From the NCBI GenBank assembly GCA_035529735.1, contig DATKWE010000023.1, positions 332 through 64,331 on the forward strand: a DNA stretch of 64,000 nucleotides, in the 5' to 3' direction. This stretch comes from Desulfobacterales bacterium. GTDB lineage: Bacteria > Desulfobacterota > Desulfobacteria > Desulfobacterales > UBA11574. The notes under the pieces were generated by a model that worked only from the letters and a program-made list of their open reading frames with translations, was not told the origin of the DNA and made no database searches. Both the position numbers and the translations under genes were made by a program. Shown here one piece after another: positions 3,635 to 64,000 of the stretch (the first letter of the stretch is position 1; the number at the start of each line of letters is the position of its first letter).

Positions 3635-4936
3635 TTATATCTTGCGATTGTCGATCACCCGGACAGCCTTGCCCTCGCTACGGGCAATGGTCTTGGGTTC
3701 CACCAGTTTCACTCTGGCTGAAACACCGAGATAATCTTTTATATTTTTTGCAATCGTCCTTTCCCGATTCTGTAGATGTTTGACTTCATCGGAAAAGATG
3801 CCTTCACCGACTTCCAGCAACACGGTCATCGTGTCCAGATTGTCCTCCCTGTCAACCACAAGCTGGTAATGCGGCTCAACCGCATCCATTTCCATAAGGA
3901 CGCTTTCGATCTGAGAGGGAAATACATTAACGCCCCGGATGATCAGCATGTCATCTGTACGGCCGCTCACCCGATTCATTCGGATATGCGTCCGGCCGCA
4001 TATACACGGCTCGGGATTCAGTGAGGTTATGTCCCGCGTCCGGTAACGGATAACGGGAAATGCTTCCTTGGTGATGGTGGTAAAAACAAGCTCACCGGTT
4101 TCACCGTATGGAAGAACTTCTCCGGATGCAGGGTCGATAATTTCAGGAATGAAATGATCTTCAAAGATGTGCAGTCCGCGCTTGGCTTCGTGACACTCAA
4201 TGGCAACCCCCGGGCCGATCACCTCGCTTAAGCCGTAAATATCTACGGCAATCAGATTCAATTTTCGTTCGATCTCCTCGCGCATTTTTTCCGACCAGGG
4301 TTCGGCCCCGAATATTCCATATTTAAATTTTAAATCTTTAAAAGAAACACCCATTTCTTCGGCGACTTCCGCGAGGTGAAGCGCATATGAGGGGGTTGCC
4401 GTCAATATGGTGGGACCGAAATCCTTCATGATCACAATTTGTCTCTTGGTATTTCCCCCTGAAACCGGGATAACGGAAGCACCGAGTTTTTCCGCGCCAT
4501 AGTGGATACCCAGTCCTCCGGTAAAAAGCCCGTATCCATATGCATTGTGAATGATGTCTTCACGCGTCGCGCCACCTGCGGCCAGGGATCGGGCCATGAG
4601 TTCGGCCCAGGTGTTCACATCCCTTGCGGTATACCCCACGACGGTCGGCTTGCCCGTGGTTCCGGACGAAGCATGGATCCGGACAACATTCGCCATGGGA
4701 ACGGAAAACATTCCAAAGGGATAATTATCCCTTAGATCCCCTTTTGTGGTAAACGGAATCCGCTTTAAATCTTCTATCGACCGGATGTCATTGGGCGAGA
4801 GATTGTTTTCTTCGAATTTTTTCCTGTAAAAAGGGACATTTGCATAAACACGATCAATTGTGGTTTTGAGCCGGCGCAGTATGATGGCCTCGAGATCTTC
4901 TCTTGGCATGGTTTCAAATCCGATGTCGAGAATCAT
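3635..4936 (-). CDS. paaK: Phenylacetate-CoA ligase family (aryl-acid adenylating enzyme)
   Basis: PaaK-like sequence ([39 protein letters not shown]). I moved the start to the ATG at 4936 (MILDIGFET...), which has SD AAGGAG 8 nt upstream. The track's longer ORF to 5074 runs through terminator hairpins. Confidence 0.9.
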
Positions 4937-5029
4937 TCCAAAACTCCTTTCAGAAAAGTTTTTATTTTTACGATAATTTTGTGGATAATACCTTAAATGC
5001 TTACAAACAGAATGACAATTAAAAATAAA

Positions 5030-5059
5030 AAAGGCCGCGGGTTTTAAACCCACAGCCTT
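5030..5059 (-). terminator. Intrinsic terminator T2
   Basis: Minus-strand RNA AAGGCUGUGGG-UUUAAAA-CCCGCGGCCUU forms 11 bp including 2 G-U and is followed by UUUUUUAUUUUU. Confidence 0.6.
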
Positions 5060-5066
5060 TAAAAAG

Positions 5067-5108
5067 AAAACCATGGGTTTTATTTTTTTTCTGTCTACCC
5101 ATGGTTTT
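5067..5108 (-). terminator. Hairpin T1 (terminator-like)
   Basis: AAAACCAUGGG pairs perfectly with CCCAUGGUUUU (11 bp, 20-nt loop) and is followed by CUUUUU. Confidence 0.5.
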
Positions 5109-5127
5109 TAAAGAACTTGGTCGTTTT

Positions 5128-5214
5128 CTACCCTGCCAGCCCATGGATAGACTTCCTAAAAAAGAAGCCACCCAAAAAACTAAAAAAACCAAAGTAGAAA
5201 AATCGAAACCGCAT
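5128..5214 (-). CDS. Candidate Phe-rich leader peptide (28 aa)
   Basis: Hand translation gives MRFRFFYFGFFSFLGGFFFRKSIHGLAG*. AAGGG lies 8 nt upstream of the ATG. The ORF is below the track's size cutoff. Confidence 0.4.
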   Translation of the reverse strand: MRFRFFYFGFFSFLGGFFFRKSIHGLAG

Positions 5215-5264
5215 TTATTAAGCCCTTAAGATTTATATTATAAATCCATATTTACTTGAAGGGT

Positions 5265-5293
5265 GCTATAATGGAATCATAAAAATATGTCAA
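5265..5293 (-). promoter_or_regulatory. Candidate sigma70-type promoter
   Basis: On the minus strand: TTGACA (5293-5288), 17-nt spacer, TATAGC (5270-5265). Confidence 0.4.
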
Positions 5294-5303
5294 GAAAAAA
5301 GAT

Positions 5304-6095
5304 TTATTCTTGTAAAGTCCCCTTGAAGTTTGCTTTCCGTTTTTCGAGAAAAGCCAATGTTCCTTCCTTTGCGTCGGGGCTCGACAGGCAGATGGCGAAA
5401 GCATCGATTTCTATTCTGCAGCCGGTCTTGAGGTCTACATCCATACCGCTGTTGATGGCCTGTTTTGCTGCACGCAGTGAAGCCTTTCCCTTTGACGCGA
5501 TGGTTGCTGCGGTCTTCATGACTTCGGCCATGAGCTCATCCTGAGGGCACACGGTATTGACCCACCCGACAGCATGGGCTTCGGCTGCAGAAATCATCTT
5601 CCCGGTGAATATCATTTCTTTGGCCATGTTCTTACCGATTAATCTGGGCAACCGCTGCGTACCGCCAAAGCCGGGAATAATGCCAAGATTAATTTCCGGC
5701 AGACCGAACATTGCGTTTTCAGCGGCGTAGATAAAATCACATCCAAGGACAATCTCACATCCGCCCCCCAGAGCAAAGCCGTTGACCGCCGCGATAACAG
5801 GTATCGGCAATTCTTGGAGTCTATTGACCAGCCCATGTCCCGTTTCGGCAAAGAGTTTAGCTTTAAGGACGTTGAATTTAAGAAATTCCGTGATATCCGC
5901 ACCGGCAACAAAAGATTTTTCTCCGGCGCCGGTAAGGACAAGGACCCGGATATCTTCGTCTGAAGCAACCGCGTCAAGGGCATTTGACAACTCTTGAAGC
6001 GATGCTTCATTCAATGCATTCAATACTTCAGGCCTGTTGAACGTAATCGTTGCAACCCCTTTTTCTACTTTAAAAATAATGTTTTTATACGCCAT
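5304..6095 (-). CDS. Enoyl-CoA hydratase/isomerase (crotonase) family
   Basis: 263 aa with the crotonase signature (VLTGAGEKSFVAGADI, GGGCEIVLGCDF). Confidence 0.9.
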   Translation of the reverse strand: MAYKNIIFKVEKGVATITFNRPEVLNALNEASLQELSNALDAVASDEDIRVLVLTGAGEKSFVAGADITEFLKFNVLKAKLFAETGHGLVNRLQELPIPVIAAVNGFALGGGCEIVLGCDFIYAAENAMFGLPEINLGIIPGFGGTQRLPRLIGKNMAKEMIFTGKMISAAEAHAVGWVNTVCPQDELMAEVMKTAATIASKGKASLRAAKQAINSGMDVDLKTGCRIEIDAFAICLSSPDAKEGTLAFLEKRKANFKGTLQE

Positions 6096-26199: not shown

Positions 26200-27726
26200 T
26201 TACTGCGTGCCGCCATACAACGCTTTTATTTTTTCCCGGTCCGGCGAACCGTCTTCGCGGGTCGGCATATCGGCGACAAACTCCACGTATTGGGGCTTTT
26301 TAAAACTGGCGATACGCCCGCCGACAAACCGTATAAGATCTTGAGGCTCCAATCTTTCATCAGCTTTTAACAGGCAGACGGCCTTGATCCCCTCTTTCCA
26401 TTTGGGATCGGGAACCCCGAAGACAACCACTCCTTCAACGGCCGGATGCTGTAGAATCACTTTTTCGACTTCTGCAGGATAGACGTTTTCTCCGCCCGGC
26501 TTTATAAGCTCCTTCTCCGCCTTACGGCCTGAATACCAGAGAAAACCATCCGCATCAAAGCGGCCCAAATCTCCGGTGTGGTGCCACCCTTCTCGGAATG
26601 TATGGGCGGTATCTTCCGGAAGATTCCAGTATCCTTTAAAGACCAAAGGCCCCTTCAGGGTGATTTCACCCACCTGTCCGTTTGGAACCGGACGATCATA
26701 ATCATCGACAAGTCTCACATTTCCAAGGGGTATCGTTTTCCCGGCCGATCCCGGTCTGTCGTTGTAACGCCCCATGGTGGCCAAACCGGTGGTCTCCGTT
26801 TGTCCGTAAATGGTATAAAACGTGCCGCCGGTAAGGTGTTGATATTTCTCGATGGTCTCCGGAACATCCAGCCCCATAACCGCTCTGAGGCTTTTGATAT
26901 CTTTACCGGTTTTTTCGTGCTGCTCGAGGATGGAAGCGAGTATCGGCGAAAAATCGAAAAAGATGGAAACTTTTTTTTCTTCGATGAGTTCAACCGCCTT
27001 TTCAGCTTCAAATTTTCTCATGTTTACGTTCAGAGCACCTGCTTGAAAGCTGTTCAAGGCCATGAAAAGACCGCCGACATGGAACATGGGCAGAAGATTT
27101 AAATGAACGTCTTCGGGTGTCAGATTAAAGCAATGGTTCAAATGGAGACCGGCACACATGAGATTGCCATGGCTCAGCAAGGCACCCCTGGGATTTCCTT
27201 CCACAGCGGCGGTATGAATCAGAACCAGACCGTCATCGTCGGAAACATCTACCGCTTCAAAGTCGCCCGGATTATTCATTAAAGAATCAACCGCGATAAA
27301 GTCTCCGCTTTTGGGTTGGAGATTATAGTATTTTTTTATGGTCGGAAGACGGTCTTTCAAGTCCTGGGTCAGTGTCTGGAACGTTGCATCGACAAACAGC
27401 GCTTCGGGCTCACAATCATTCAGGTTAAAATGGATCTCGTCGGCTGATAGTCGCCAGTTAACCGGCAAAACGATTGCTCCCAAGGCAGCAGCGGCCCCAT
27501 AAAGGATAAAATACTCACGACTGTTTTTCCCCAGAACTCCGATGCGATCGCCTTTTTTAATATTGGATCTTTGCAGGCCGCAGGCCATGCGATCCACCAT
27601 CTCTTTATACTGAACGAAGGTCATGGTCCGGTGGTCGTCGACCTCGAACCATGCAGCGCTGTCAGCAAAACATACGGCGTTTCTATCGATAAGATCATAA
27701 AAAGTAAAATCGTATAGACCCATCAA
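26200..27726 (-). CDS. AMP-dependent synthetase/ligase (acyl- or aryl-CoA ligase)
   Basis: 508 aa adenylate-forming enzyme (IYGQTET, TGDLGRFDADGFLWYSGRK, GGENVYPAEVE). Confidence 0.85.
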   Translation of the reverse strand: MMGLYDFTFYDLIDRNAVCFADSAAWFEVDDHRTMTFVQYKEMVDRMACGLQRSNIKKGDRIGVLGKNSREYFILYGAAAALGAIVLPVNWRLSADEIHFNLNDCEPEALFVDATFQTLTQDLKDRLPTIKKYYNLQPKSGDFIAVDSLMNNPGDFEAVDVSDDDGLVLIHTAAVEGNPRGALLSHGNLMCAGLHLNHCFNLTPEDVHLNLLPMFHVGGLFMALNSFQAGALNVNMRKFEAEKAVELIEEKKVSIFFDFSPILASILEQHEKTGKDIKSLRAVMGLDVPETIEKYQHLTGGTFYTIYGQTETTGLATMGRYNDRPGSAGKTIPLGNVRLVDDYDRPVPNGQVGEITLKGPLVFKGYWNLPEDTAHTFREGWHHTGDLGRFDADGFLWYSGRKAEKELIKPGGENVYPAEVEKVILQHPAVEGVVVFGVPDPKWKEGIKAVCLLKADERLEPQDLIRFVGGRIASFKKPQYVEFVADMPTREDGSPDREKIKALYGGTQ

Positions 27727-27811
27727 AGACCTCGGATATTTTCGCTATTGAACTAAAACAGGTTACGCACGCCAACCGGTATGTGGCTGGAATACGCAAC
27801 CTGTTACATGA

Positions 27812-28408
27812 TTAGGGAAATGTCGCCTTGAAAGTGATCACCTGGGTCATACCGCCTGCTTCGAAAACTGCAGCACCGGCTTTTACATGAACGGGAACAG
27901 CGTATTCCGGAATTCCGGTCCACCATTTTTCAAGCTGATCCCAAGCGTTGGTTCCTTTGGCTTGCAACTGAAAGCCGCCGGTGACCAGAAGACTCAACAA
28001 AGACTGTCTCACATCAAAGTGAGCATGCACCCGGACTTGGTTGGTCTTGCCGGCAGGGATCCACATGGTGTCTGTGGAAGCCACCGTATTAAGATCGAAC
28101 TCTTCAAAAGCTACGGTGAACTTCAAGTTCTCCATTTTTACAGCATATTCATTGGGATTTTCAATGTTAAAGATAAACGCAAGGTCAAGGGGTGCGCCAA
28201 CGTTGTCCGGTTTCCCCTTGGTGGGTTCAACTTTATTTGAAAAATACCAGTATCCAAAAGCATGGGCAACTTCCATCGAATCGAGGGTAACCACCGGCGC
28301 CTTAAAATTCTGCTGCGTGGGCGTTACCATCGTTCCTGCGCAACCCGACAGCATGGCAGCGATGACGACAACACTCAAACATGTAAGTATAAATGATCTT
28401 TTATGCAT
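27812..28408 (-). CDS. Lipoprotein with a LEA14/LEA_2-like beta-sandwich (tentative)
   Basis: Lipobox MLSGC; 198 aa, beta-rich; 29 nt downstream of livF. Confidence 0.55.
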   Translation of the reverse strand: MHKRSFILTCLSVVVIAAMLSGCAGTMVTPTQQNFKAPVVTLDSMEVAHAFGYWYFSNKVEPTKGKPDNVGAPLDLAFIFNIENPNEYAVKMENLKFTVAFEEFDLNTVASTDTMWIPAGKTNQVRVHAHFDVRQSLLSLLVTGGFQLQAKGTNAWDQLEKWWTGIPEYAVPVHVKAGAAVFEAGGMTQVITFKATFP

Positions 28409-28437
28409 TTTATTCCTCCCCTATTTTATATAAAGGG

Positions 28438-29250
28438 TTAGGTAAGCCATCGTTTTCTTCGCTTGTAGTGTTTTACATCCCGAAAACTTTTACGGCCCCC
28501 AACATCGGTCAGTCCCAGATAGAAATCTTTGATATCTGGATTCTCTCGGAGTTTTTCGGCGGTGTCGTCCATGACTATGCGGCCGTTCTCCATCACATAG
28601 GCATAAGGAGCAACATTAAGGGCAAGTTTGGCATTCTGTTCCACCAGAAGAATCGATATGTCCTCTTCTTGGTTGAGTTTTTGTATAATATTGAAAATTT
28701 CATGGATGAGAAGCGGGGCCAGGCCCATGGAGGGCTCATCCAGGAGGATCAGTTTGGGACTGGTCATCAGGGCCCTCCCGACCACCGTCATCTGCTGCTC
28801 TCCGCCGCTGATAAACCCGGCGGTCTCGTTACGTTTTTCCTTAAGACGCGGGAAATAATGGTACACCATGTCGAGTCCGTCCCGAATGGATCGACCGTAT
28901 TTTCTCATATGAGCGCCCACTTTCAGGTTCTGCTCCACGGTGAGGTGCTCGAATACCCGTCGTCCCTCGATGACCTGGACGATGCCCATCTTGGCGATCT
29001 TTTCAGCGGCTGTTTTATCGATCCGCTGTCCCATGAATTCAATCGACCCATCGGTGACCTCGCCGTCCTCATGTCGCAAGAGTCCGGAAATGGCCTTTAG
29101 GGTCGTACTCTTACCGGCTCCATTGGCGCCCAGAAGGGCCACAATGGCACCTTTGGGAATTTCAATGGAGACCCCCTTTATAACCAGAATGACCTCGTGA
29201 TACTTGACCTCAATATTGTTGATCTGTAATATTATCTCTTTGTTCGACAA
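28438..29250 (-). CDS. livF: Liv-type ABC transporter ATPase, LivF-like
   Basis: Walker A GANGAGKST, signature SGGEQQM, Walker B LILLDEPS. Confidence 0.9.
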   Translation of the reverse strand: MSNKEIILQINNIEVKYHEVILVIKGVSIEIPKGAIVALLGANGAGKSTTLKAISGLLRHEDGEVTDGSIEFMGQRIDKTAAEKIAKMGIVQVIEGRRVFEHLTVEQNLKVGAHMRKYGRSIRDGLDMVYHYFPRLKEKRNETAGFISGGEQQMTVVGRALMTSPKLILLDEPSMGLAPLLIHEIFNIIQKLNQEEDISILLVEQNAKLALNVAPYAYVMENGRIVMDDTAEKLRENPDIKDFYLGLTDVGGRKSFRDVKHYKRRKRWLT

Positions 29251-29265
29251 AGCCTTAAGACCTCC

Positions 29266-30513
29266 TTACCATCCGAGCCACTCGTCGGCCCATTTCTTCG
29301 GCCAGCGACTTTTCAAATCGACTTTTTCAACGATTTGGAATTTGCCGTCTTTGATTTCATAAATCGGCACAATTCCGGCGACACGATGATCTGTTGCCGT
29401 AAAGTTAACCGGTGCTGCACCCAGACCGATGTCAAAATTTTTCATGGTTTCAAAACCGTTTTTCAGAATGTTCTCACCGCTTAAACCTCCGGCTTTATCC
29501 GCACGTTTTAATGCTTCCCATAAGATGAGTACGTCACCCCATCCCTGTACCGTATGATTGAGACGTTTTTCCAGAGGAACGCCCGGATTGTATTTTTTGG
29601 CATACTCGACCACCTTGTCCATCATCGGCACATCTTCGCCGAAGAATGCACAAACTGCAACGCCCATAACCCCTTCGGAAGCCTTGCCTGCCAATCTGGG
29701 CAGATTCTCGTCAAACCCCCAGTTATTGACAATGTGATCCGCTCCAAGACTTAAAGCATAGGCATCACGAACCGTGGCTGCCACAGACATGGTGGTGTTC
29801 CCGTGCCAGACGAGATCCGGGTTGAAATCTTTCATGGCCAGAACCTGACTTTTGGTATCGATGGCAAACAATGAAACAGACTGATCCGGTCCGATTTCAA
29901 AACCGAGAATCTCAGCCTGATCCTTTATGGCCTTGATCGGCGCACTGCAATAAGGAGAAGCAAACATGTAAGAACAGAGAAACCGCGGTTTTCTTTTTCC
30001 GAAATCTTTGTGCTTGGGCCATTTTTTATCAAACCAGGCTGTGATTGCCGCCCTGGCGTTGGTTGAATAATCGGTTGCAAAAAAAAGATTGTAAGGGGTC
30101 TTTTTAGGATCCGTCAGATGCGCTGAATAGGATGCGGACACATACGGTATTTTATCCTTGGTTATGGTCGGCGACAGTGCCTCGGTATCACCGGTCCCCC
30201 AGCCCAGAATGGCAACGCATTCGAGCCTTTTGAAGAGTTTGTATTTGGTCAGCGCCTCGGGGACACGATAGCCGTAGTCAAACTGATACAGCTTGATCTG
30301 CTTGCCGTTGACCCCGCCATTATCATTGACATAATGGATTGCTTCCGCAATGCCCAGGGCATAATCTTTGCCCACATCCGAGGTCGCTCCGGTCATGTCA
30401 TTGAGCGCGCCCACATTAATTTTTGCAGCTCCGGCCATTGATGAAAATCCAACAACCAAAGCCACAGTAAATATGACTACGAAAATCTTTGAACACATAT
30501 TTTTACCAAACAT
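29266..30513 (-). CDS. Periplasmic substrate-binding protein of a Liv-type ABC transporter
   Basis: 415 aa, signal peptide ending SSMAGA, Peripla_BP_6-like. Confidence 0.85.
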   Translation of the reverse strand: MFGKNMCSKIFVVIFTVALVVGFSSMAGAAKINVGALNDMTGATSDVGKDYALGIAEAIHYVNDNGGVNGKQIKLYQFDYGYRVPEALTKYKLFKRLECVAILGWGTGDTEALSPTITKDKIPYVSASYSAHLTDPKKTPYNLFFATDYSTNARAAITAWFDKKWPKHKDFGKRKPRFLCSYMFASPYCSAPIKAIKDQAEILGFEIGPDQSVSLFAIDTKSQVLAMKDFNPDLVWHGNTTMSVAATVRDAYALSLGADHIVNNWGFDENLPRLAGKASEGVMGVAVCAFFGEDVPMMDKVVEYAKKYNPGVPLEKRLNHTVQGWGDVLILWEALKRADKAGGLSGENILKNGFETMKNFDIGLGAAPVNFTATDHRVAGIVPIYEIKDGKFQIVEKVDLKSRWPKKWADEWLGW

Positions 30514-30721
30514 AATTTCTTTCCCCCTTTTAAGAGAGTAAAATTTCCACCGGGTTCCTTACCAATTCGCTGTCTACCTTTTTACCACCTCCTTTTTTTC
30601 TTTCATCCAATTCGAGCGTTTCAAATGGTGACATGCTCATATAAAATCGCTCAAATAAGGTGTCCATATCGTTAAACAGTTGAATGTAAGGTGCTCGAAC
30701 ACCCAACGTACCTTCTCGATT

Positions 30722-31822
30722 TTAATATGAAAACGGCCACAGGTTGAAATAGTTTTTCATTTGCCACCACCGATAGGCCAAACCGTTGGGTTCAAATATC
30801 ATAAACACACAGATGGCCAAACCAAAAACGGCCTCCTTGATAAACAGGAAGTCAACCAAAAGCTTGGGATAGATATCGGCCAGCGGTATGACGGCCAGCT
30901 GCAACATCTCCATGACGACGACCATGAACACCGCCCCGAATATGGTTCCGTGTATGGAACCGACCCCGCCGATGAGGATCACACCCACCAGCCACAGAGA
31001 CCAAAACCAGGGAAAGTGCTCGGGGCTTATGGCAGCAAGGTTGCTGATCCAGAATGCCCCCGCAACGCCCCCAATAAACCCTGCCACGTAAAAGGCCAGA
31101 AGTTTATACTTGATAACATTTATTCCCATGACCTCCGCAGAAATGTCATTGTCCCTTATGGCAATCCAGGCCCGGCCCACCCTGGACCTAATCAGATTGA
31201 GCACGCCGATGACACAAACAATCACCAAAACAAGCATCATGAAATAGACCTTAAGGTCACTGTCGATAATCCACGGTCCGACCTTGATGGTCCCCGGAGG
31301 CAAAGAAAAGGCCTGTCCCCGTCCGCCGATCTGGCTCACATATCCCGTAATAATAAAATCTACGGTGATGAACTGAGCGGCCATGGTGGTTAATATCAGA
31401 TAAAATCCTTTGACCCTGGCGCAAGGGAGTCCAAAGAGTACACTCCATGCGCCGGATACAATTGCCGCAATGAGGATGCTGATAGGATAGGCAAGACCCC
31501 AGTCCATCAATATTTTCGGCCAGGGAAACTCAAGGATAAGCAGGGTGCTGGTATATGCGCCCACCGCGATAAATGCTGCATGACCCAGGGTTATCTGACC
31601 GCAGAAGCCGATCAAAAGCTGTACGCCGATAGCACCGAGGATGGTATATCCAACCAAATTTAGGATGCTGAGCACATAAGAATCGGCCACCAGAGGAATG
31701 ATGACAAACAGGATGATTAAGAGCAGTATCATTTTGGCTTTGATAAATTTCGTCTGCCACCAGGCATGATCCTGAACATAATTTTGGTGGTAGACACCGC
31801 ATGGAAGCCAGGTTGTTGACAT
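30722..31822 (-). CDS. livM: Liv-type ABC transporter permease, LivM-like
   Basis: 366 aa with GFCGQITLGHAAFIAVGAY. Confidence 0.9.
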   Translation of the reverse strand: MSTTWLPCGVYHQNYVQDHAWWQTKFIKAKMILLLIILFVIIPLVADSYVLSILNLVGYTILGAIGVQLLIGFCGQITLGHAAFIAVGAYTSTLLILEFPWPKILMDWGLAYPISILIAAIVSGAWSVLFGLPCARVKGFYLILTTMAAQFITVDFIITGYVSQIGGRGQAFSLPPGTIKVGPWIIDSDLKVYFMMLVLVIVCVIGVLNLIRSRVGRAWIAIRDNDISAEVMGINVIKYKLLAFYVAGFIGGVAGAFWISNLAAISPEHFPWFWSLWLVGVILIGGVGSIHGTIFGAVFMVVVMEMLQLAVIPLADIYPKLLVDFLFIKEAVFGLAICVFMIFEPNGLAYRWWQMKNYFNLWPFSY

Positions 31823-31839
31823 AAAAAAACTCCGTTTTT

Positions 31840-31909
31840 GGGTTACGAGTTGCGGGTTACGGGTTGTGTTACAGTCCTTTTAACCCGTAACGCGTGACAC
31901 AAAACTCGC
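31840..31909 (-). repeat. Structured GC-rich intercistronic spacer (GGGTTACG direct repeats plus nested stems)
   Basis: GGGTTACG occurs at 31840 and 31854. GTTACGGGTT (31856-31865) pairs with AACCCGTAAC (31882-31891). The outer pair ACGAGTT (31845-31851)/AACTCGC (31903-31909) contains one G-U in the minus-strand RNA. Confidence 0.7.
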
Positions 31910-31916
31910 AACGCGG

Positions 31917-32801
31917 TTAGACGCGTTCAATCCGCTCCCATCCCCATAACCCATGGGGTTTGAAGAGCAGGAAGACCGCCATGAATGCAAAAGGGGCGAC
32001 CTCTTTTACACCGCCGGGGAAATATCTATCCAGATATGCCCCACAGAGGTTCTGTAATACGCCGATGGTAATTCCACCCACAATAGCGCCGGGTACGGAA
32101 TTTAGCCCCCCCAGCACCACCGCAGGGAGAACCAACAGACCAAGGTACCCCACGGATATGTTGAGCCCGTTGATGTTACCCAAAAGGGTCCCGCCGACAC
32201 CGGCCGCCATGAAAGCGATTGCCCAGGCTGCCGCATAGACGAATCTGGCACTCACGCCAAGGGAGAGCGCGGCCATCTCATCGTCGGCTGTGGCCTGCAT
32301 GGCAAGGCCCCACCGGGTATATTTAAAAAAGCAGACAAAAATGATTAAAAGAATGATGGCGGCCACAAAACTCCAAAGATACGCTTGACCAACAATGACG
32401 GGTCCTATGTGAATCGGCTCCATTGAAAATACCGGTGGGTCGAATACACGGGTATCCGTACCCCATATAAATTCCACCGTTCCTTTAAAGAAAAATGAAA
32501 GACCTACGGTTACCATAATCACCGTTAGAACGGGTTGGCCGATGAGCTTGTCCAGAAAAATCCTTTCGGTCAGTATCCCCAGAACCAGTCCTACAATCAG
32601 GGAAAGTAAAAGTGACAGTAAAAAGGGAATGCCCATTGAATAAAAGCTTAAGGAAACATAAGCCCCGATGAGCGTCAGTTCGCCCATGGCCAGATTCAGC
32701 ACACCGGAACATTTATATATCAACACCCATCCAAGGGCGACCAGAGCATAGATGCCGCCAACCATAATGCCCGTGGTAACGGTCATCAAAAAAAGTTCCA
32801 T
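31917..32801 (-). CDS. livH: Liv-type ABC transporter permease, LivH-like
   Basis: 294-aa polytopic permease. Confidence 0.9.
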   Translation of the reverse strand: MELFLMTVTTGIMVGGIYALVALGWVLIYKCSGVLNLAMGELTLIGAYVSLSFYSMGIPFLLSLLLSLIVGLVLGILTERIFLDKLIGQPVLTVIMVTVGLSFFFKGTVEFIWGTDTRVFDPPVFSMEPIHIGPVIVGQAYLWSFVAAIILLIIFVCFFKYTRWGLAMQATADDEMAALSLGVSARFVYAAAWAIAFMAAGVGGTLLGNINGLNISVGYLGLLVLPAVVLGGLNSVPGAIVGGITIGVLQNLCGAYLDRYFPGGVKEVAPFAFMAVFLLFKPHGLWGWERIERV

Positions 32802-32826
32802 TTTCTGTTCTACCTTTCCATCGATG

Positions 32827-34809
32827 TTATGGGTTATGGTCCAAAGGTTCTATCTTTCTAATGTGAAGATCGATGTTAATGTGTGCCTGTCTCCCGTCTT
32901 CATACCTGACCGTGGTATCGATATGCACGTTATCATCGTCAGAATAGAGGGCGTCCACAATTTCCTGATACCTTTTCTCAACAAAAGCCCGCCGAAGTTT
33001 GCGCGTTCGTGTAAGTTCATCATCATCTGCATCGAATTCCTTGTAAAGGTTGATGAACTTTTTGACTCTGGCGGCTTCCGGGAGATCATTGTTGGCCTGA
33101 CGTATCTGCGCTTCCACCAGGTTGTAGACGTCGGGAATCTGGGATAGTTCCTGATAGCTCGTATAATTGATCTTTTTTTCATCCGCCCATTTGCCCGCCA
33201 CGGCGTAATCGATACAGATGACTGCGGTGACATATTCCCGCTGGTCTCCGATGACCCATGAATCTCTCACATATGGGCTGAATTTCATGCGGGTTTCCAG
33301 ATACTGGGGAGAGAAAGGTTTTCCGTCTCTAAGGGTAAAGACGTCCTTGGTACGATCAAAGACAACCAGGTGACCGTCATCATCGATAAACCCTTTGTCA
33401 CCGGAGTACAACCACCCGTCCTTCAGGGTCTCTTTGTCCGCTTCCGGGTTTTTATAATAACCCAGAAAAACCGACGGGCTTCGGGTAAGAATCTCTCCTT
33501 CTTCGGTGATCTTTATTTCCGTTTCCGGGATCGGATGGCCCACGGTATCAAATTTTATGTCTCCGGAGCGATGCACCACCGAAATTCCGGCGACTTCGGT
33601 CTGACCGTAAATCTGTTTGAGATTGACCCCAAGGGCATGAAAAAAACGAAAGTGGTCCGGCCCCATGGCCGCCCCGCCGGTATAGGCATTTCGGACACGA
33701 GACAGACCGAGATGATCTTTAACTTTATTCTGGACCGTAATCGATGCCAACCATCCCAAAAATGCCCAGTACCAAGGTATGGTTTTTTTCTGAAACTTAA
33801 GATCTGCCACATGATAACCGATCTTGGTGGAGAACTCATAGCATTTCCGTTTGATCCAGGTGGAATCCAAATACTTAACCTGGACTGTCCGGGTCATCTG
33901 CTCGTACATCCGCGGAGGGGCGAACATCACATGGGGGCCGATTTCTCTGATATTATCCTGAGCGGTTTCAGACGCCTCGGGGAAATTGATGGTGTATCCC
34001 ACCTGTAGACCGCAGGAGATCGACATCATCTGTTCTCCGATCCAGGCAAAGGGGAGATAAGAGACATAATCATCCGTAGGCCTGCAAGGATCCACAGCCA
34101 TGAGGTGCTGGCCCATGGTCAACATGTTATTGTGGGAAAGGAGTGCGCCTTTGGGGCGTGAGGTGGTTCCGGAAGTATAAAACAGTAGAGCTACTTCGTC
34201 TCCGTGGCCTTTATCGATCATCTCTTTGAATAACTGCGGCTGTTGTTGTTCCAGTTCCCGGCCCAGCTCCTGAACTTCCGTGAGGCTGATCAGATAGTCT
34301 TCATTATAGTTTCGCATCCCTTTTGGATCATCCCAGATAATCTTTTTCAGCCTGGGACATTCATTAAAAATAGAGATGGCCTTGTCTACTTCCTCTTGAC
34401 CTTCACCGAATATAAATTTGGTGTCTGAATGGTCAATGATATACTTGACTTCCTCGATCAAGGAGTCCTGGAACAGCCATACACCCACACCTCTGGCACA
34501 AAGCGCGGCCATTTCCGCCCAAAGACCTTCCGGGCGATTGTCCCCGATCATGGCGACCTTGTCCCCTTCTTCGAGGCCTAAACGAACGAGACCCAGCGCC
34601 AAATATTTGACATTTTCCAAATAATCATGCCAGGTAATGGGCCGCCATATGCCAAACTCCTTCTCCCGCATGACCACCCTGCCCTTTCCGTATTCGGTGG
34701 CTTTTTCATAAAATAATTTGGGGATGGTCAGATCTTTTGTAACTTCAATATGGTATTTGCTGTTATTCTGATCTGTTTTATCTTCTTGTTGCATAGAGGT
34801 CCTCATCAC
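32827..34809 (-). CDS. Long (660 aa) AMP-forming acyl-CoA synthetase embedded in the ABC operon
   Basis: YTSGTTSRPKGA, YGQTEVAG, SGDKGFIDDDGHLVVFDRTKD. It overlaps livG by 32 nt. Confidence 0.85.
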   Translation of the reverse strand: MMRTSMQQEDKTDQNNSKYHIEVTKDLTIPKLFYEKATEYGKGRVVMREKEFGIWRPITWHDYLENVKYLALGLVRLGLEEGDKVAMIGDNRPEGLWAEMAALCARGVGVWLFQDSLIEEVKYIIDHSDTKFIFGEGQEEVDKAISIFNECPRLKKIIWDDPKGMRNYNEDYLISLTEVQELGRELEQQQPQLFKEMIDKGHGDEVALLFYTSGTTSRPKGALLSHNNMLTMGQHLMAVDPCRPTDDYVSYLPFAWIGEQMMSISCGLQVGYTINFPEASETAQDNIREIGPHVMFAPPRMYEQMTRTVQVKYLDSTWIKRKCYEFSTKIGYHVADLKFQKKTIPWYWAFLGWLASITVQNKVKDHLGLSRVRNAYTGGAAMGPDHFRFFHALGVNLKQIYGQTEVAGISVVHRSGDIKFDTVGHPIPETEIKITEEGEILTRSPSVFLGYYKNPEADKETLKDGWLYSGDKGFIDDDGHLVVFDRTKDVFTLRDGKPFSPQYLETRMKFSPYVRDSWVIGDQREYVTAVICIDYAVAGKWADEKKINYTSYQELSQIPDVYNLVEAQIRQANNDLPEAARVKKFINLYKEFDADDDELTRTRKLRRAFVEKRYQEIVDALYSDDDNVHIDTTVRYEDGRQAHINIDLHIRKIEPLDHNP

Positions 34810-35599
34810 CCAGGTAGGCCTTAATCACCTCAGGATGATTCTGGACTTCCTCAGGTGTACCGTCGATAATCATGTTGCCGAAATTGAGAACAAAAACATG
34901 ATCGGAAAGATCCATAACCACACCCATGTCATGCTCTACCAGAATACAGGTGACTTTCCAGCGTTCTTCTTCATTAATGTCTATTACAAAGCGGGCCATG
35001 TCCTCCACTTCTTCGAGATTGAGTCCGGCCAGTGGTTCATCCAGAATTAATAGTTCAGGGTCCAGAGCCAGTGCCCGGCCGAGTTCCACACGTTTCTGCA
35101 GTCCATACGGCAGCATCCCCACAGGTTTATGCCGGATATGTTGAATCTCCAAGAGATCGATGATCTCTTCCTCAATAAAGTTTCGGTGTTCGATCTCTTC
35201 CCGGGCGGTTTTGCCGACATATATGGATCCGCTGATAATGCCTGATTTTAAATGGATATGTCGTCCCAGACGAATGTTATCCAATACCGTCATACCGCCG
35301 AAAACCTCGACTTTCTGAAACGTTCTCGCAATACCCAATTCAGCACGCTGAAAAGGCCTGAGTTTGTCGATTTTTTTTTGTTTGTAATAGATATTCCCCT
35401 GTTGCGGGGTATAAAGACCGTTGATAATATTCATCATCACCGTTTTGCCGGCGCCGTTGGGCCCGATTACAGAATGTATCTCACCTTTTCTTATTTTCAG
35501 TTTAACGCCGGCGAGGGCACATACTTTGCCGAAAAACATATGGACATCCTCGAGTTCCAACAGGACGTCATTTTCTTTTAGATCGTCTGATGCTGCCAA
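34778..35599 (-). CDS. livG: Liv-type ABC transporter ATPase, LivG-like
   Basis: Walker A GPNGAGKT, Walker B LLILDEPLAG. TTG start with SD GAAGGTGA. Confidence 0.9.
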   Translation of the reverse strand: MAASDDLKENDVLLELEDVHMFFGKVCALAGVKLKIRKGEIHSVIGPNGAGKTVMMNIINGLYTPQQGNIYYKQKKIDKLRPFQRAELGIARTFQKVEVFGGMTVLDNIRLGRHIHLKSGIISGSIYVGKTAREEIEHRNFIEEEIIDLLEIQHIRHKPVGMLPYGLQKRVELGRALALDPELLILDEPLAGLNLEEVEDMARFVIDINEEERWKVTCILVEHDMGVVMDLSDHVFVLNFGNMIIDGTPEEVQNHPEVIKAYLGDEDLYATRR

Positions 35600-62542: not shown

Positions 62543-63865
62543 CTATCCGGATTGGCTTTCTTCCGATTTAATATAGTCATCGATTCCCTTTCCAAGTGTA
62601 TCGATCATCGTGCGAAAGCGATCCTCATTTGGTTCTAAAAGGGTGACCCGAAAGCCCTGCAAGTTCGTGTTAAAGGACGTCAGGGGAACCACACAAATTC
62701 CAGTGGCAGCCAGGAGGTAATATACAAACCGCTTATCCGGATGTATAGGCGGACCGGAAGTCAGTGTTTTCACGAGTTCAGCAACGGAGGGATCGGAAAT
62801 GGGCAGGGTTTGCCGATGGTTCAGGAGGCCGTCTTCAAAAGCCACACTCATATACAGCGCACCGTTGGTCCGGTTTGCCAGCACACCGGGGATATCTTTG
62901 AGCCGATCGAAGGCGATCTGTGAGAACCTTTCGTAACGCAGGCGTCGTTTTTCCAGGTAAGCCGCATATTCGGGGTGCTGCAGGATGTGCGGAAGAGCCT
63001 TTTGGGGGAGGGTTGTTGAACAGACCTCAACCATTTTGGCGTTGAGAATGCTCTTGATATACGTTTCAAACTCGGGTTTTCTCTGAGCATTGTAAACTTC
63101 GATCCAACCGCACCGGGAACCGGGCCAGGGGAGTTCCTTGGAAATCCCCTTCATGGAAATAGCCGGAACTTCACCGATGACCGCAGCCAGCGGTTCGGTC
63201 TTCTGGCCGTTGAAAACCAGATTCTGATAAATTTCATCGGCGATGATAAAAAGGTTGAATTCTGAGGCAATATCAACAATTTCCCTGAGCAGATCTGCCG
63301 GATAAACAGCACCTGTCGGATTATCGGGGTTGATCAGTAAAATACCGGCCACGGCCGGATTATACTTGACCCGTCGCCGCAGTTCATGGACGTCCGGATA
63401 CCAGTGGTTGTGCGGATCGAGAGGATAAGAGACCGGCGGCAGACCGGCGTGGGCTGCTTCGCATGCAGAGTGCGTCGTATAAGTGGGTGACGGCGTTATC
63501 ACACGGGCGGTACGGCGTAAAAATCCATAAGTTTTGGTAATGGCATCTCCAAGACCGTTAAAAAAAATGATGTCGTCCGGGGTGATGCGGCAATGGCCGT
63601 TGCCGTTGTTCATGGCAACCAGAAACTCGCGCGTTTCGAGCAGTCCTTGGGTGGGACAGTAACCGTAGCTATCGTCTTCCATAACCAGCCGGGAAACAAT
63701 CTTTTTCATCCAATCGGGGATCTTTTCACCTTTTGCCACAGGATCGCCGATATTTTCCAGATAGACGGAAACTCCCAGTTCTTGGAGTTTATCGGCGACC
63801 CGCACGATATTTCGGATTTCATAATTCAGTTCTTCTGCGCCAATGTGTACGATTCCTGTCCGCAT
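62543..63865 (-). CDS. Class I/II PLP-dependent aminotransferase (alanine aminotransferase-like)
   Basis: 440 aa, NPDNPTG, SMKGISKELPWPGSRCGW (PLP-Lys region). SD AAGGAGG. Confidence 0.85.
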   Translation of the reverse strand: MRTGIVHIGAEELNYEIRNIVRVADKLQELGVSVYLENIGDPVAKGEKIPDWMKKIVSRLVMEDDSYGYCPTQGLLETREFLVAMNNGNGHCRITPDDIIFFNGLGDAITKTYGFLRRTARVITPSPTYTTHSACEAAHAGLPPVSYPLDPHNHWYPDVHELRRRVKYNPAVAGILLINPDNPTGAVYPADLLREIVDIASEFNLFIIADEIYQNLVFNGQKTEPLAAVIGEVPAISMKGISKELPWPGSRCGWIEVYNAQRKPEFETYIKSILNAKMVEVCSTTLPQKALPHILQHPEYAAYLEKRRLRYERFSQIAFDRLKDIPGVLANRTNGALYMSVAFEDGLLNHRQTLPISDPSVAELVKTLTSGPPIHPDKRFVYYLLAATGICVVPLTSFNTNLQGFRVTLLEPNEDRFRTMIDTLGKGIDDYIKSEESQSG

Positions 63866-63890: not shown

Positions 63891-63924
63891 AATAAAAAGG
63901 GCTGCCGGATTACTTTGCAGCCCT
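63891..63924 (-). terminator. Intrinsic terminator (second of a tandem pair) for a minus-strand gene beyond the window
   Basis: AGGGCUGC...GCAGCCCU (8 bp) followed by UUUUAUU on the minus strand. Confidence 0.6.
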
Positions 63925-63930
63925 CTAAAC

Positions 63931-63972
63931 TAAAAAGGGCTGCGGTCGATTGCCTGCAGCCCCGGTTTTTTT
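63931..63972. terminator. Bidirectional intrinsic terminator
   Basis: A 9-bp GC stem with one bulge (GGGCTGCGG/CCTGCAGCCC) is flanked by an A5 run on the left and a T7 run on the right. Confidence 0.65.
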
Positions 63973-64000
63973 ATAGGGAAATCAGATCATCTGCTCCCCT

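Follow-up and report, generated by a model that had tools for sequence, protein, structure and literature searches.

A probable phenylalanine leader-peptide attenuator upstream of paaK in Desulfobacterota

The leader between the hydratase gene and paaK

In the window, i.e. the whole analysed stretch of 64,000 nucleotides (nt) from a Desulfobacterales bacterium (contig DATKWE010000023.1, positions 332 to 64,331; assembly GCA_035529735.1), mutS and genes for an AMIN/Amidase_3 amidase and an enoyl-CoA hydratase lie upstream of an intergenic element that is followed by paaK, a gene for an ACT-domain-pair protein and a Liv-type ATP-binding cassette (ABC) importer. An earlier note, made from the sequence alone, had named these flanking genes, which protein family searches confirmed, and had taken the spacer for a candidate attenuator that senses phenylalanine. 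Coordinates of the element and of its operon are given for the minus strand of the window in the direction of transcription. Direct reading of the spacer gave a -35 hexamer TTGACA (5293-5288), which is a perfect match, and after 17 nt the -10 hexamer TATAGC (5270-5265), from which transcription would start near position 5258. The Shine-Dalgarno motif AAGGG (5227-5223) is located 8 nt 5' of the ATG (5214-5212) of a leader open reading frame (ORF) of 28 codons plus stop, MRFRFFYFGFFSFLGGFFFRKSIHGLAG (5214-5128; TAG at 5130-5128), which encodes 10 Phe and 1 Tyr, with Phe at codons 3, 5, 6, 8, 10, 11, 13, 17, 18 and 19. Promoter, AAGGG and Phe-rich ORF were re-read as the earlier note had given them.

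Six RNA segments can be distinguished, which pair either as 1:2, 3:4 (hairpin T1) and 5:6 (hairpin T2) or as 2:3 (A:B) and 4:5. Segment 1 (5183-5162) is the 5' arm of a leader hairpin and covers codons 12-19 including the conserved GGC UUC UUU UUU, and segment 2 (5157-5136) is the 3' arm of the same hairpin, pairs with segment 1 or 3 and contains segment A (GUCUAUCCAUGG; 5152-5141), read directly from leader codons 21-25. Segment 3 (5108-5093) is defined by the A:B and T1 pairings and consists of segment B (CCAUGGGUAGAC; 5104-5093, also a direct reading) overlapping the T1 left arm (5108-5097). Segment 4 (5080-5061) is the T1 right arm (5078-5067, or 5080-5067 when paired with segment 5) with its CUUUUU tail (5066-5061), segment 5 (5060-5046) holds the T2 left arm (5060-5049) and pairs alternatively with segment 4 over 5059-5046, and segment 6 (5041-5021) combines the T2 right arm (5041-5030) and a U-tract (5032-5021) to an intrinsic terminator. 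Re-reading of the helices reproduced the previously described A:B complementarity at 12/12 positions including one G-U pair, and led to small corrections for the others. T1, described as an 11-bp hairpin (5108-5098 with 5077-5067) before CUUUUU, indeed precedes CUUUUU but has 12 bp (5108-5097 with 5078-5067) and an 18-nt loop, and T2 is a terminator with a U-tract as proposed, its right arm now being 5041-5030 instead of 5040-5030, with 12 bp (5060-5049 with 5041-5030), two G-U pairs, a 7-nt loop and a U-tract reaching to 5021. The alternative helix 4:5, formed by the T1 right arm and the T2 left arm (5080-5067 with 5046-5059), measures 14 bp and not 11 bp, while its four G-U pairs and 7-nt loop were correct. 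T2 is the sole consensus terminator on the minus strand within the hydratase-paaK spacer.

Folding of the minus-strand RNA 5262-5020 led to -79.5 kcal/mol with z = -6.1, and 0 of 200 shuffles were as good; the plus strand reached only -51.0 kcal/mol (z = -3.2). In the minimum free energy structure, segment A is held in a hairpin with leader codons 12-19, in which GGC UUC UUU UUU forms the apex, and an outer helix joins codons 2-7 (S0, 5210-5190) to a stretch with the leader stop codon and bases 3' of it (S0', 5135-5119). The self-complementary core CCAUGG is repeated in segments 2, 3 and 4 (5146-5141, 5104-5099 and 5076-5071), with CUGUGG in segment 5 (5055-5050), and these cores are nearly invariant among the 44 aligned copies described below; the chain of alternative helices may have originated by duplication of one palindromic unit.

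Conservation among relatives

A PaaK protein scan with one genome per species led to 80 paaK loci with 78-97% protein identity, among them loci from Desulfobacterales, Syntrophobacteraceae, Desulfacinum and Desulfosoma, and the element was searched for by blastn and subsequently with an iterated nhmmer profile, using window 5212-5026 as the query. It was detected at 46 of the 80 loci with nhmmer E-values of 1e-16 to 1e-51, in all 46 carriers on the paaK strand and 20-430 nt upstream of paaK; for about five of the negative loci the upstream sequence was too short to judge. The carriers belong to Desulfobacterales, Syntrophobacteraceae, Desulfacinum and Desulfosoma and include the cultured strains Desulfacinum infernum DSM 9756 and D. 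hydrothermale DSM 13146. In the former the element is located at L037 3749-3944, corresponding to about NZ_FQVB01000031.1:33796-33991, and in the latter at L049 3752-3943. Conservation over two orders (Desulfobacterales and Syntrophobacterales) extends to about 190 nt 5' of T2. DNA patterns that match 35-42 of the 46 copies carry about 26-34 bits, for which hundreds to thousands of chance matches in metagenomes were estimated, and the specific patterns of the element cover close relatives only. Within the window itself, a profile search for a second copy gave only a weak match to tandem hairpins at 63971-63893, which are part of a different candidate leader described below.

Alignment of 44 of these sequences by plain MAFFT, fitted to no structure (alignment A1), revealed an in-frame ORF through the conserved GGC-TTC-TTT-TTT in every copy (44/44), starting with ATG in 42 and with GTG in two copies, having 27-28 codons in 36/44 and being preceded in most relatives by purine-rich, Shine-Dalgarno-like motifs of varied sequence. 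Changes in ORF length are +6, -3 and -6 nt (L016, L071 and L077). Each copy encodes 5-10 Phe in leaders of 17-33 codons, using both TTT and TTC, with a mean of 8.6 Phe codons compared to 3.0 in shuffles of the same bases, and TTY triplets in these ORFs number 379 in frame versus 210 and 184 in the two alternative frames. This enrichment holds in GC-rich relatives. The concern raised in the earlier note that the Phe codons might be compositional can therefore be dropped, as they are frame-specific and are kept when the genome is GC-rich. Phe is the only residue consistently enriched among the leader copies, which otherwise carry 0-3 Tyr codons, with Tyr absent from many of them, and 0-2 Trp or Cys codons. 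The N-terminal halves diverge yet stay rich in Phe (e.g. MDNRFFRFRFFGFFGG..., MMDRCFRWGFIGGNGGFFF... and MPNSFFCFSLFFSGFSF), as can be seen from the leaders of Desulfacinum (MDNRFFRFRFFGFFGGFFFRKSAHGRGR), the GC-rich Desulfosoma (MMDRCFRWGFIGGNGGFFFKKSTHGRAG) and a metagenome-assembled genome (MAG) of Syntrophobacteraceae (MPNSFFCFSLFFSGFSF). The C-terminal stretch RKSIHG, which is conserved, falls on RNA segment A, and substitutions in this segment are compensated in B, indicating a constraint on the RNA rather than on the peptide. When six of the leader peptides were looked up by exact sequence in a collection of 15 billion proteins, none was present, indicating that no gene caller has called them.

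Both alternative folds are supported by compensatory changes in A1. For the helices of the terminating fold, 83% (1:2), 94% (T1) and 90.5% (T2) of the alignment cells are paired, with 7, 6 and 6 pairs changed on both sides, respectively; for the readthrough fold these values are 96% with 4 such pairs (A:B) and 90.8% with 7 (4:5). Two pairs of A:B show a change from U-A to C-G, one of them in 5 sequences and the other in 7. In controls with the 3' partner displaced by 1-3 columns, the paired cells fell to 29-54% over both folds, and to 29-46% for the readthrough helices A:B and 4:5. The clade of L004 shows a three-way change, with C to U in the T1 right arm, G to A in the T2 left arm and C to U in the T2 right arm, by which CG is replaced by UA at columns 187/217 for 4:5, while the G of the T1 left arm is retained and now pairs with U; a single segment thus has matching changes in each of the two segments with which it can pair. 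In the outer helix S0, both sides have changed at 11 of 13 pairs, but no more than 69% of its cells are paired in the MAFFT alignment. RNAalifold independently recovered T1 and T2 as well as the core of the leader hairpin. The five helices are all stable, with median energies of -12 to -19 kcal/mol, and energies below -5 kcal/mol were calculated for A:B and T1 in 44/44 and for 4:5 and T2 in 43/44 copies. A U-rich tail follows T2 in 41/44 copies and T1 in 29/44 (the T1 tail being scored as U-rich when 7 or more of the 10 nt behind the GC core are U), which makes T2 the universal terminator of the element; T1 is primarily a relay helix that in this lineage also resembles a terminator (UUUUCUUUUU). 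The earlier note had proposed to align the spacers upstream of paaK from relatives, and in this alignment the ORF, its frame and the A:B, T1 and T2 pairings turned out to be conserved with compensatory changes.

The surroundings of the element were also compared. Of 37 copies scored, 33 have a perfect TTGACA, a spacer of 16-18 nt and a TATA-like -10 at 32-85 nt 5' of the leader ATG, among them copies without an upstream hydratase gene; the -10 variants are TATAGA, TATAGC and TATAAA. The element is kept without the hydratase gene at nine loci (L037, L049, L064, L066, L067, L071, L072, L077 and L079); the upstream neighbour in L077 is a divergent gene for an AI-2E transporter, and the nearest upstream ORF in L037 is divergent as well. 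From the T2 U-tract to the paaK ATG there are 21-24 nt in at least eight loci (L004, L007, L008, L011, L015, L018, L042 and L069), which is space for a Shine-Dalgarno motif only, and as T2 abuts paaK there, the gene can be expressed in these loci only via readthrough of T2. In the window, a weak promoter-like TTGTCA-17-TAAGGT (5017-4989) lies between T2 and paaK. In L001, the closest relative, this sequence is altered, and nothing comparable is present at loci where the paaK Shine-Dalgarno motif directly follows T2, so that the reservation attached to it in the earlier note loses its ground. At loci without the element, the gap between hydratase gene and paaK can go down to 11-57 nt with no terminator in it. 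Inserts of about 150-400 nt, of two kinds (one in L016, L021 and L022, the other in L009 and L014), were observed between the T2 U-tract and the paaK Shine-Dalgarno motif; they are common to unrelated MAGs at one place and look like small repeated or mobile elements.

Proposed attenuation and rival explanations

From the sequence and its conservation we estimate a probability of roughly 0.8 that the element is a ribosome-mediated transcription attenuator, in which a leader peptide senses charged tRNA-Phe and controls the paaK-ACT-ABC importer operon. Transcription would start immediately behind the hydratase gene, from the promoter with the conserved TTGACA, and ribosomes would translate the Phe-rich leader of 28 codons. 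By default, the RNA is predicted to fold as 1:2, 3:4 and 5:6, so that transcription would end at T2 or, in this lineage, perhaps even before it, at T1. With plentiful Phe, the ribosome would reach the stop codon and cover A, leaving B free for T1, so that T2 could form and transcription would terminate. When Phe-tRNA is scarce, the ribosome would stall at the Phe codons midway through the ORF, melt segment 1 and leave A free to pair with B upon emergence of the latter; the freed T1 right arm would then take the T2 left arm, neither terminator would form, and RNA polymerase could enter paaK. The stalling of the ribosome, the direction and size of the response and its physiological meaning are what we infer from these pairings. 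Folding of partial transcripts, in which the RNA was allowed to grow and a ribosome-sized stretch was made unpairable, is consistent with this order of events. Without a ribosome, 20/20 pairs of 1:2 were formed and T1 followed. With the A site of the ribosome on Phe codons 6-17, A:B was complete (12/12) once B was out, and with the ribosome on codons 11-17 all 14 pairs of 4:5 formed once the T2 left arm was out, while a ribosome at the stop codon masked A and left 0/12 pairs of A:B. The switch logic suggested in the earlier note was thus reproduced by the partial-transcript folds, except that A is not free by default but sequestered with Phe codons 12-19.

Several observations weigh against this interpretation. 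At equilibrium the full leader favours T1 and T2 by 1-8 kcal/mol, even with the mask of a stalled ribosome, and T2 (-19.7 kcal/mol) is more stable than 4:5 (-15.1 kcal/mol), so that readthrough would have to be kinetic, with A:B and 4:5 forming first. According to the footprint model, a ribosome halted at codons 18-19, which are the Phe codons conserved best, already reaches over the 5' end of A, and a stall on codons 3-5 leaves 1:2 closed; only part of the Phe codons would therefore be effective. Part of the U-richness moreover serves pairing, as codons 17-19 are in the apex of 1:2 and codons 5-7 in S0. A small number of copies have degenerated, namely L027, in which -10, ORF and A are lost and B, T1 and T2 are kept, L013, which retains promoter, ORF and A without B, T1 and T2, and L032, in which the region of the leader stop codon is lost. 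On the side of the regulated genes, the PaaK protein scores 622 bits against the TIGR02155 equivalog model, just below its cut-off of 646 bits, an aryl-pyruvate (indolepyruvate-type) oxidoreductase was not found downstream of the operon or among 20 genes checked at 11.7-42 kb, and the operon is tied to Phe only indirectly.

Further natural variants are L010 and L023, in which the whole element has been lost by deletion between two CTTTTTT runs and the hydratase gene is joined directly to paaK, L080, which has only the promoter and a T2-like hairpin, and L026, in which a 1-nt deletion causes a stop right after FFF. Together with the three incomplete copies, these deleted and degenerate variants are a small minority, look like decay and do not contradict the attenuator model. 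The natural deletions offer built-in controls.

That T1 and T2 are plain terminators of the mutS-amidase-hydratase unit, with a paaK promoter after T2 and the ORF as a by-product of T-rich sequence, was already considered in the earlier note. T2 is indeed a textbook terminator 3' of a co-directional gene in the window, the weak TTGTCA-17-TAAGGT follows it, and transcripts reading through from the hydratase gene would stop here, a secondary role that is compatible with attenuation. However, the element stays with paaK where the hydratase gene is absent, even after a divergent ORF, the about 22 nt between T2 and the paaK ATG at no fewer than eight loci leave no space for a separate promoter, the conserved sequence extends about 190 nt 5' of T2, the ORF is constrained in a frame-specific manner, and the alternative pairings covary. 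Loci without the element can also shrink to a gap of 11-57 nt between hydratase gene and paaK without any terminator. We regard this explanation as very improbable. Repeated CCAUGG(G) in segments 2, 3 and 4 and CYGUGG(G) in segment 5 resemble TRAP-like repeated targets, an ACT-domain protein is always co-encoded, and the equilibrium energies alone give no switch, all of which would suit an attenuator set by a trans-acting factor at the CCAUGGG repeats, be it an RNA-binding protein, possibly the ACT protein with Phe, or a small ligand. Such a factor is unlikely, as the repeats are explained by their mutual pairing with compensatory changes, and as start codon, Shine-Dalgarno-like motifs, ORF length, frame-preserving indels and frame-specific Phe codons would be left unexplained; a match to a riboswitch, T-box or protein-binding leader at the Rfam gathering threshold was also missing.

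Translation of the leader could in principle report on something other than Phe, such as general translation stress, Tyr together with Phe, or ribosome-targeting compounds. Attenuators with short upstream ORFs that sense general ribosome stalling exist, for example antibiotic-responsive leaders, and the leaders studied here contain 0-3 Tyr and 0-2 Trp or Cys codons. Yet only Phe, with 5-10 of 17-33 codons, is consistently enriched in every copy, Tyr is often absent, and the regulated gene family acts on phenylacetate, so that a signal not specific for Phe appears quite unlikely. An independent gene, either for a small Phe-rich hydrophobic protein or for a terminated small RNA acting in trans, would agree with the conservation and hydrophobicity of the ORF, and in other bacteria a trans function of terminated attenuator RNAs and of leader peptides is described (PMC6614838; PMC7298713). 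The invariant place directly 5' of paaK on the same strand, a peptide that is variable save for its Phe content and whose conserved C-terminus is segment A with compensation in B, and the absence of the six leader peptides from the protein collection all speak against it and make it highly improbable; a trans role could exist beside the cis role but would be no replacement for it. Attenuation by a Phe-sensing leader peptide is accordingly the reading that we prefer.

Relation to known leaders and meaning of the operon

At the gathering threshold, an Rfam scan of the whole window detected only a tRNA and no riboswitch, T-box or protein-binding leader, and Phe_leader was not among the 25 matches for 4700-5600 at E <= 10. 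Membership in Rfam Phe_leader was rejected from the missing match even at this relaxed threshold, as was a T-box or riboswitch leader, for which no Rfam model matched and the conserved sequence is explained by the ORF and the helix chain. The sub-threshold matches to ctRNA_pT181, HrrF, PyrR and L20_leader are driven by the terminators and represent no real family match.

Attenuation by leader peptides is a classic mechanism, but the Phe leaders known to us are gammaproteobacterial and control pheA or pheST. The pheL leader constitutes a family of the gamma-subdivision with 53 unique genes (PMC3082878). A description of a Phe leader before paaK or in Desulfobacterota was not found in the literature, in which subscription journals were sparsely covered. 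As in pheL-pheA and pheST, a short leader with Phe codons governs a downstream terminator, and charged tRNA-Phe is the expected signal; in contrast to these systems, the element is found in Desulfobacterota, has a 28-codon leader, six segments and two hairpin-plus-U-tract units, and targets paaK-ACT-ABC importer genes instead of chorismate mutase/prephenate dehydratase or Phe-tRNA synthetase. With the trp leader (trpL) it shares the choice between antiterminator and terminator by the position of the ribosome and the termination of an untranslated leader ('superattenuation'), but trpL has four segments and one switch, whereas the element adds the relay step 3:4/4:5 before the final terminator. 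The his leader of Salmonella and E. coli is a six-segment attenuator, in which A:B, C:D and E:F alternate with B:C and D:E. The element resembles it in the ORF rich in cognate codons, in six segments that form three hairpins upon termination and two upon readthrough, in the last hairpin being the terminator, and in the stall in segment 1 that starts a relay of re-pairing. It differs in sequence, to which no relationship exists, in sensing Phe, in Phe codons that are scattered over 19 codons (the his leader has one run of seven), in a middle hairpin T1 that has a U-tail in most copies and is maybe a second terminator, and in target genes that are not a classical biosynthetic operon. Of the pheA/pheST/trp leader logic invoked in the earlier note, ribosome-mediated Phe attenuation is retained, while the architecture is of the six-segment his-leader type. 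The element is a conserved Phe leader, non-homologous to the gammaproteobacterial ones, in sulfate-reducing and syntrophic Desulfobacterota, and as far as we found it is previously undescribed; a new RNA family could readily be proposed for it.

A second candidate leader-peptide attenuator was observed at window 63893-64000 (minus strand), where it runs past the end of the window; a full copy is present in L081 (2776-3000). Its ORF MMQASISRVQNACRATGAAAAAAAGGPAVLEGSR is preceded by a Shine-Dalgarno motif, contains seven consecutive Ala codons and is followed by two tandem hairpin-plus-U-tract units (63971-63893, minus strand) and by a gene for a 440-amino-acid, pyridoxal phosphate-dependent aminotransferase (62543-63865; NCBIfam PRK06855, next best match alanine aminotransferase). 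Such an Ala-run leader ORF lies upstream of about 33 of 75 metagenomic relatives with 62-100% protein identity. No Rfam match was obtained for this leader, and a whiB7 leader that reportedly responds to Ala in mycobacteria (PMC10274678) may be a precedent.

The operon behind the Phe leader starts with paaK (4936-3635; Shine-Dalgarno motif AGGAG at 4948-4944), the product of which contains the Pfam domains AMP-binding and AMP-binding_C_2 and matches PDB entry 2y27 (Burkholderia PaaK1) with 2e-149, followed by the gene for the ACT-domain-pair protein (3504-3073; Pfam ACT_8) and the Liv-type importer (2980-816) with a Peripla_BP_6 binding protein (2980-1808) and a first permease (1718-816). A second permease and two ATPases lie past the left end of the window, and near-identical contigs contain the full operon with paaK, ACT, binding protein, two permeases and two ATPases. 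In nearly every locus paaK and the ACT-pair gene are located downstream of the element, and in most also the importer genes. Among solved structures, 3sg0, 4dqd, 7ylt, 3tx6, 4jb0 and 3uk0 are closest to the binding protein; most of these are presumably Rhodopseudomonas binders of aromatic acids including phenylpyruvate. Another Liv-type ABC importer with a Peripla_BP_6 binding protein, two permeases and two ATPases is encoded at 26200-35599 (minus strand), interleaved with two AMP-binding acyl-CoA ligases.

As the attenuator would turn the operon on when Phe-tRNA is scarce, the module can be read as serving Phe synthesis, which suggests uptake of an aryl acid and its activation with CoA (phenylacetate or a related compound) under Phe starvation. 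Reductive carboxylation of phenylacetyl-CoA occurs in anaerobes, and salvage of phenylacetate to phenylalanine is an old physiological observation in these organisms, for which genes and regulation are poorly assigned. We would tentatively propose, at somewhat less than even odds, that paaK-ACT(-ABC) of anaerobic Desulfobacterota is an anabolic module for Phe salvage (import of an aryl acid, activation to phenylacetyl-CoA and supply of a reductive carboxylation to phenylpyruvate) and not a catabolic one, and that leader attenuation with relay hairpins is general in the phylum. Induction by Phe starvation would be hard to square with a catabolic role of an AMP-forming phenylacetate-CoA ligase, and if this holds true, the attenuator would provide regulatory evidence on the function of the widespread and highly conserved paaK-ACT module.

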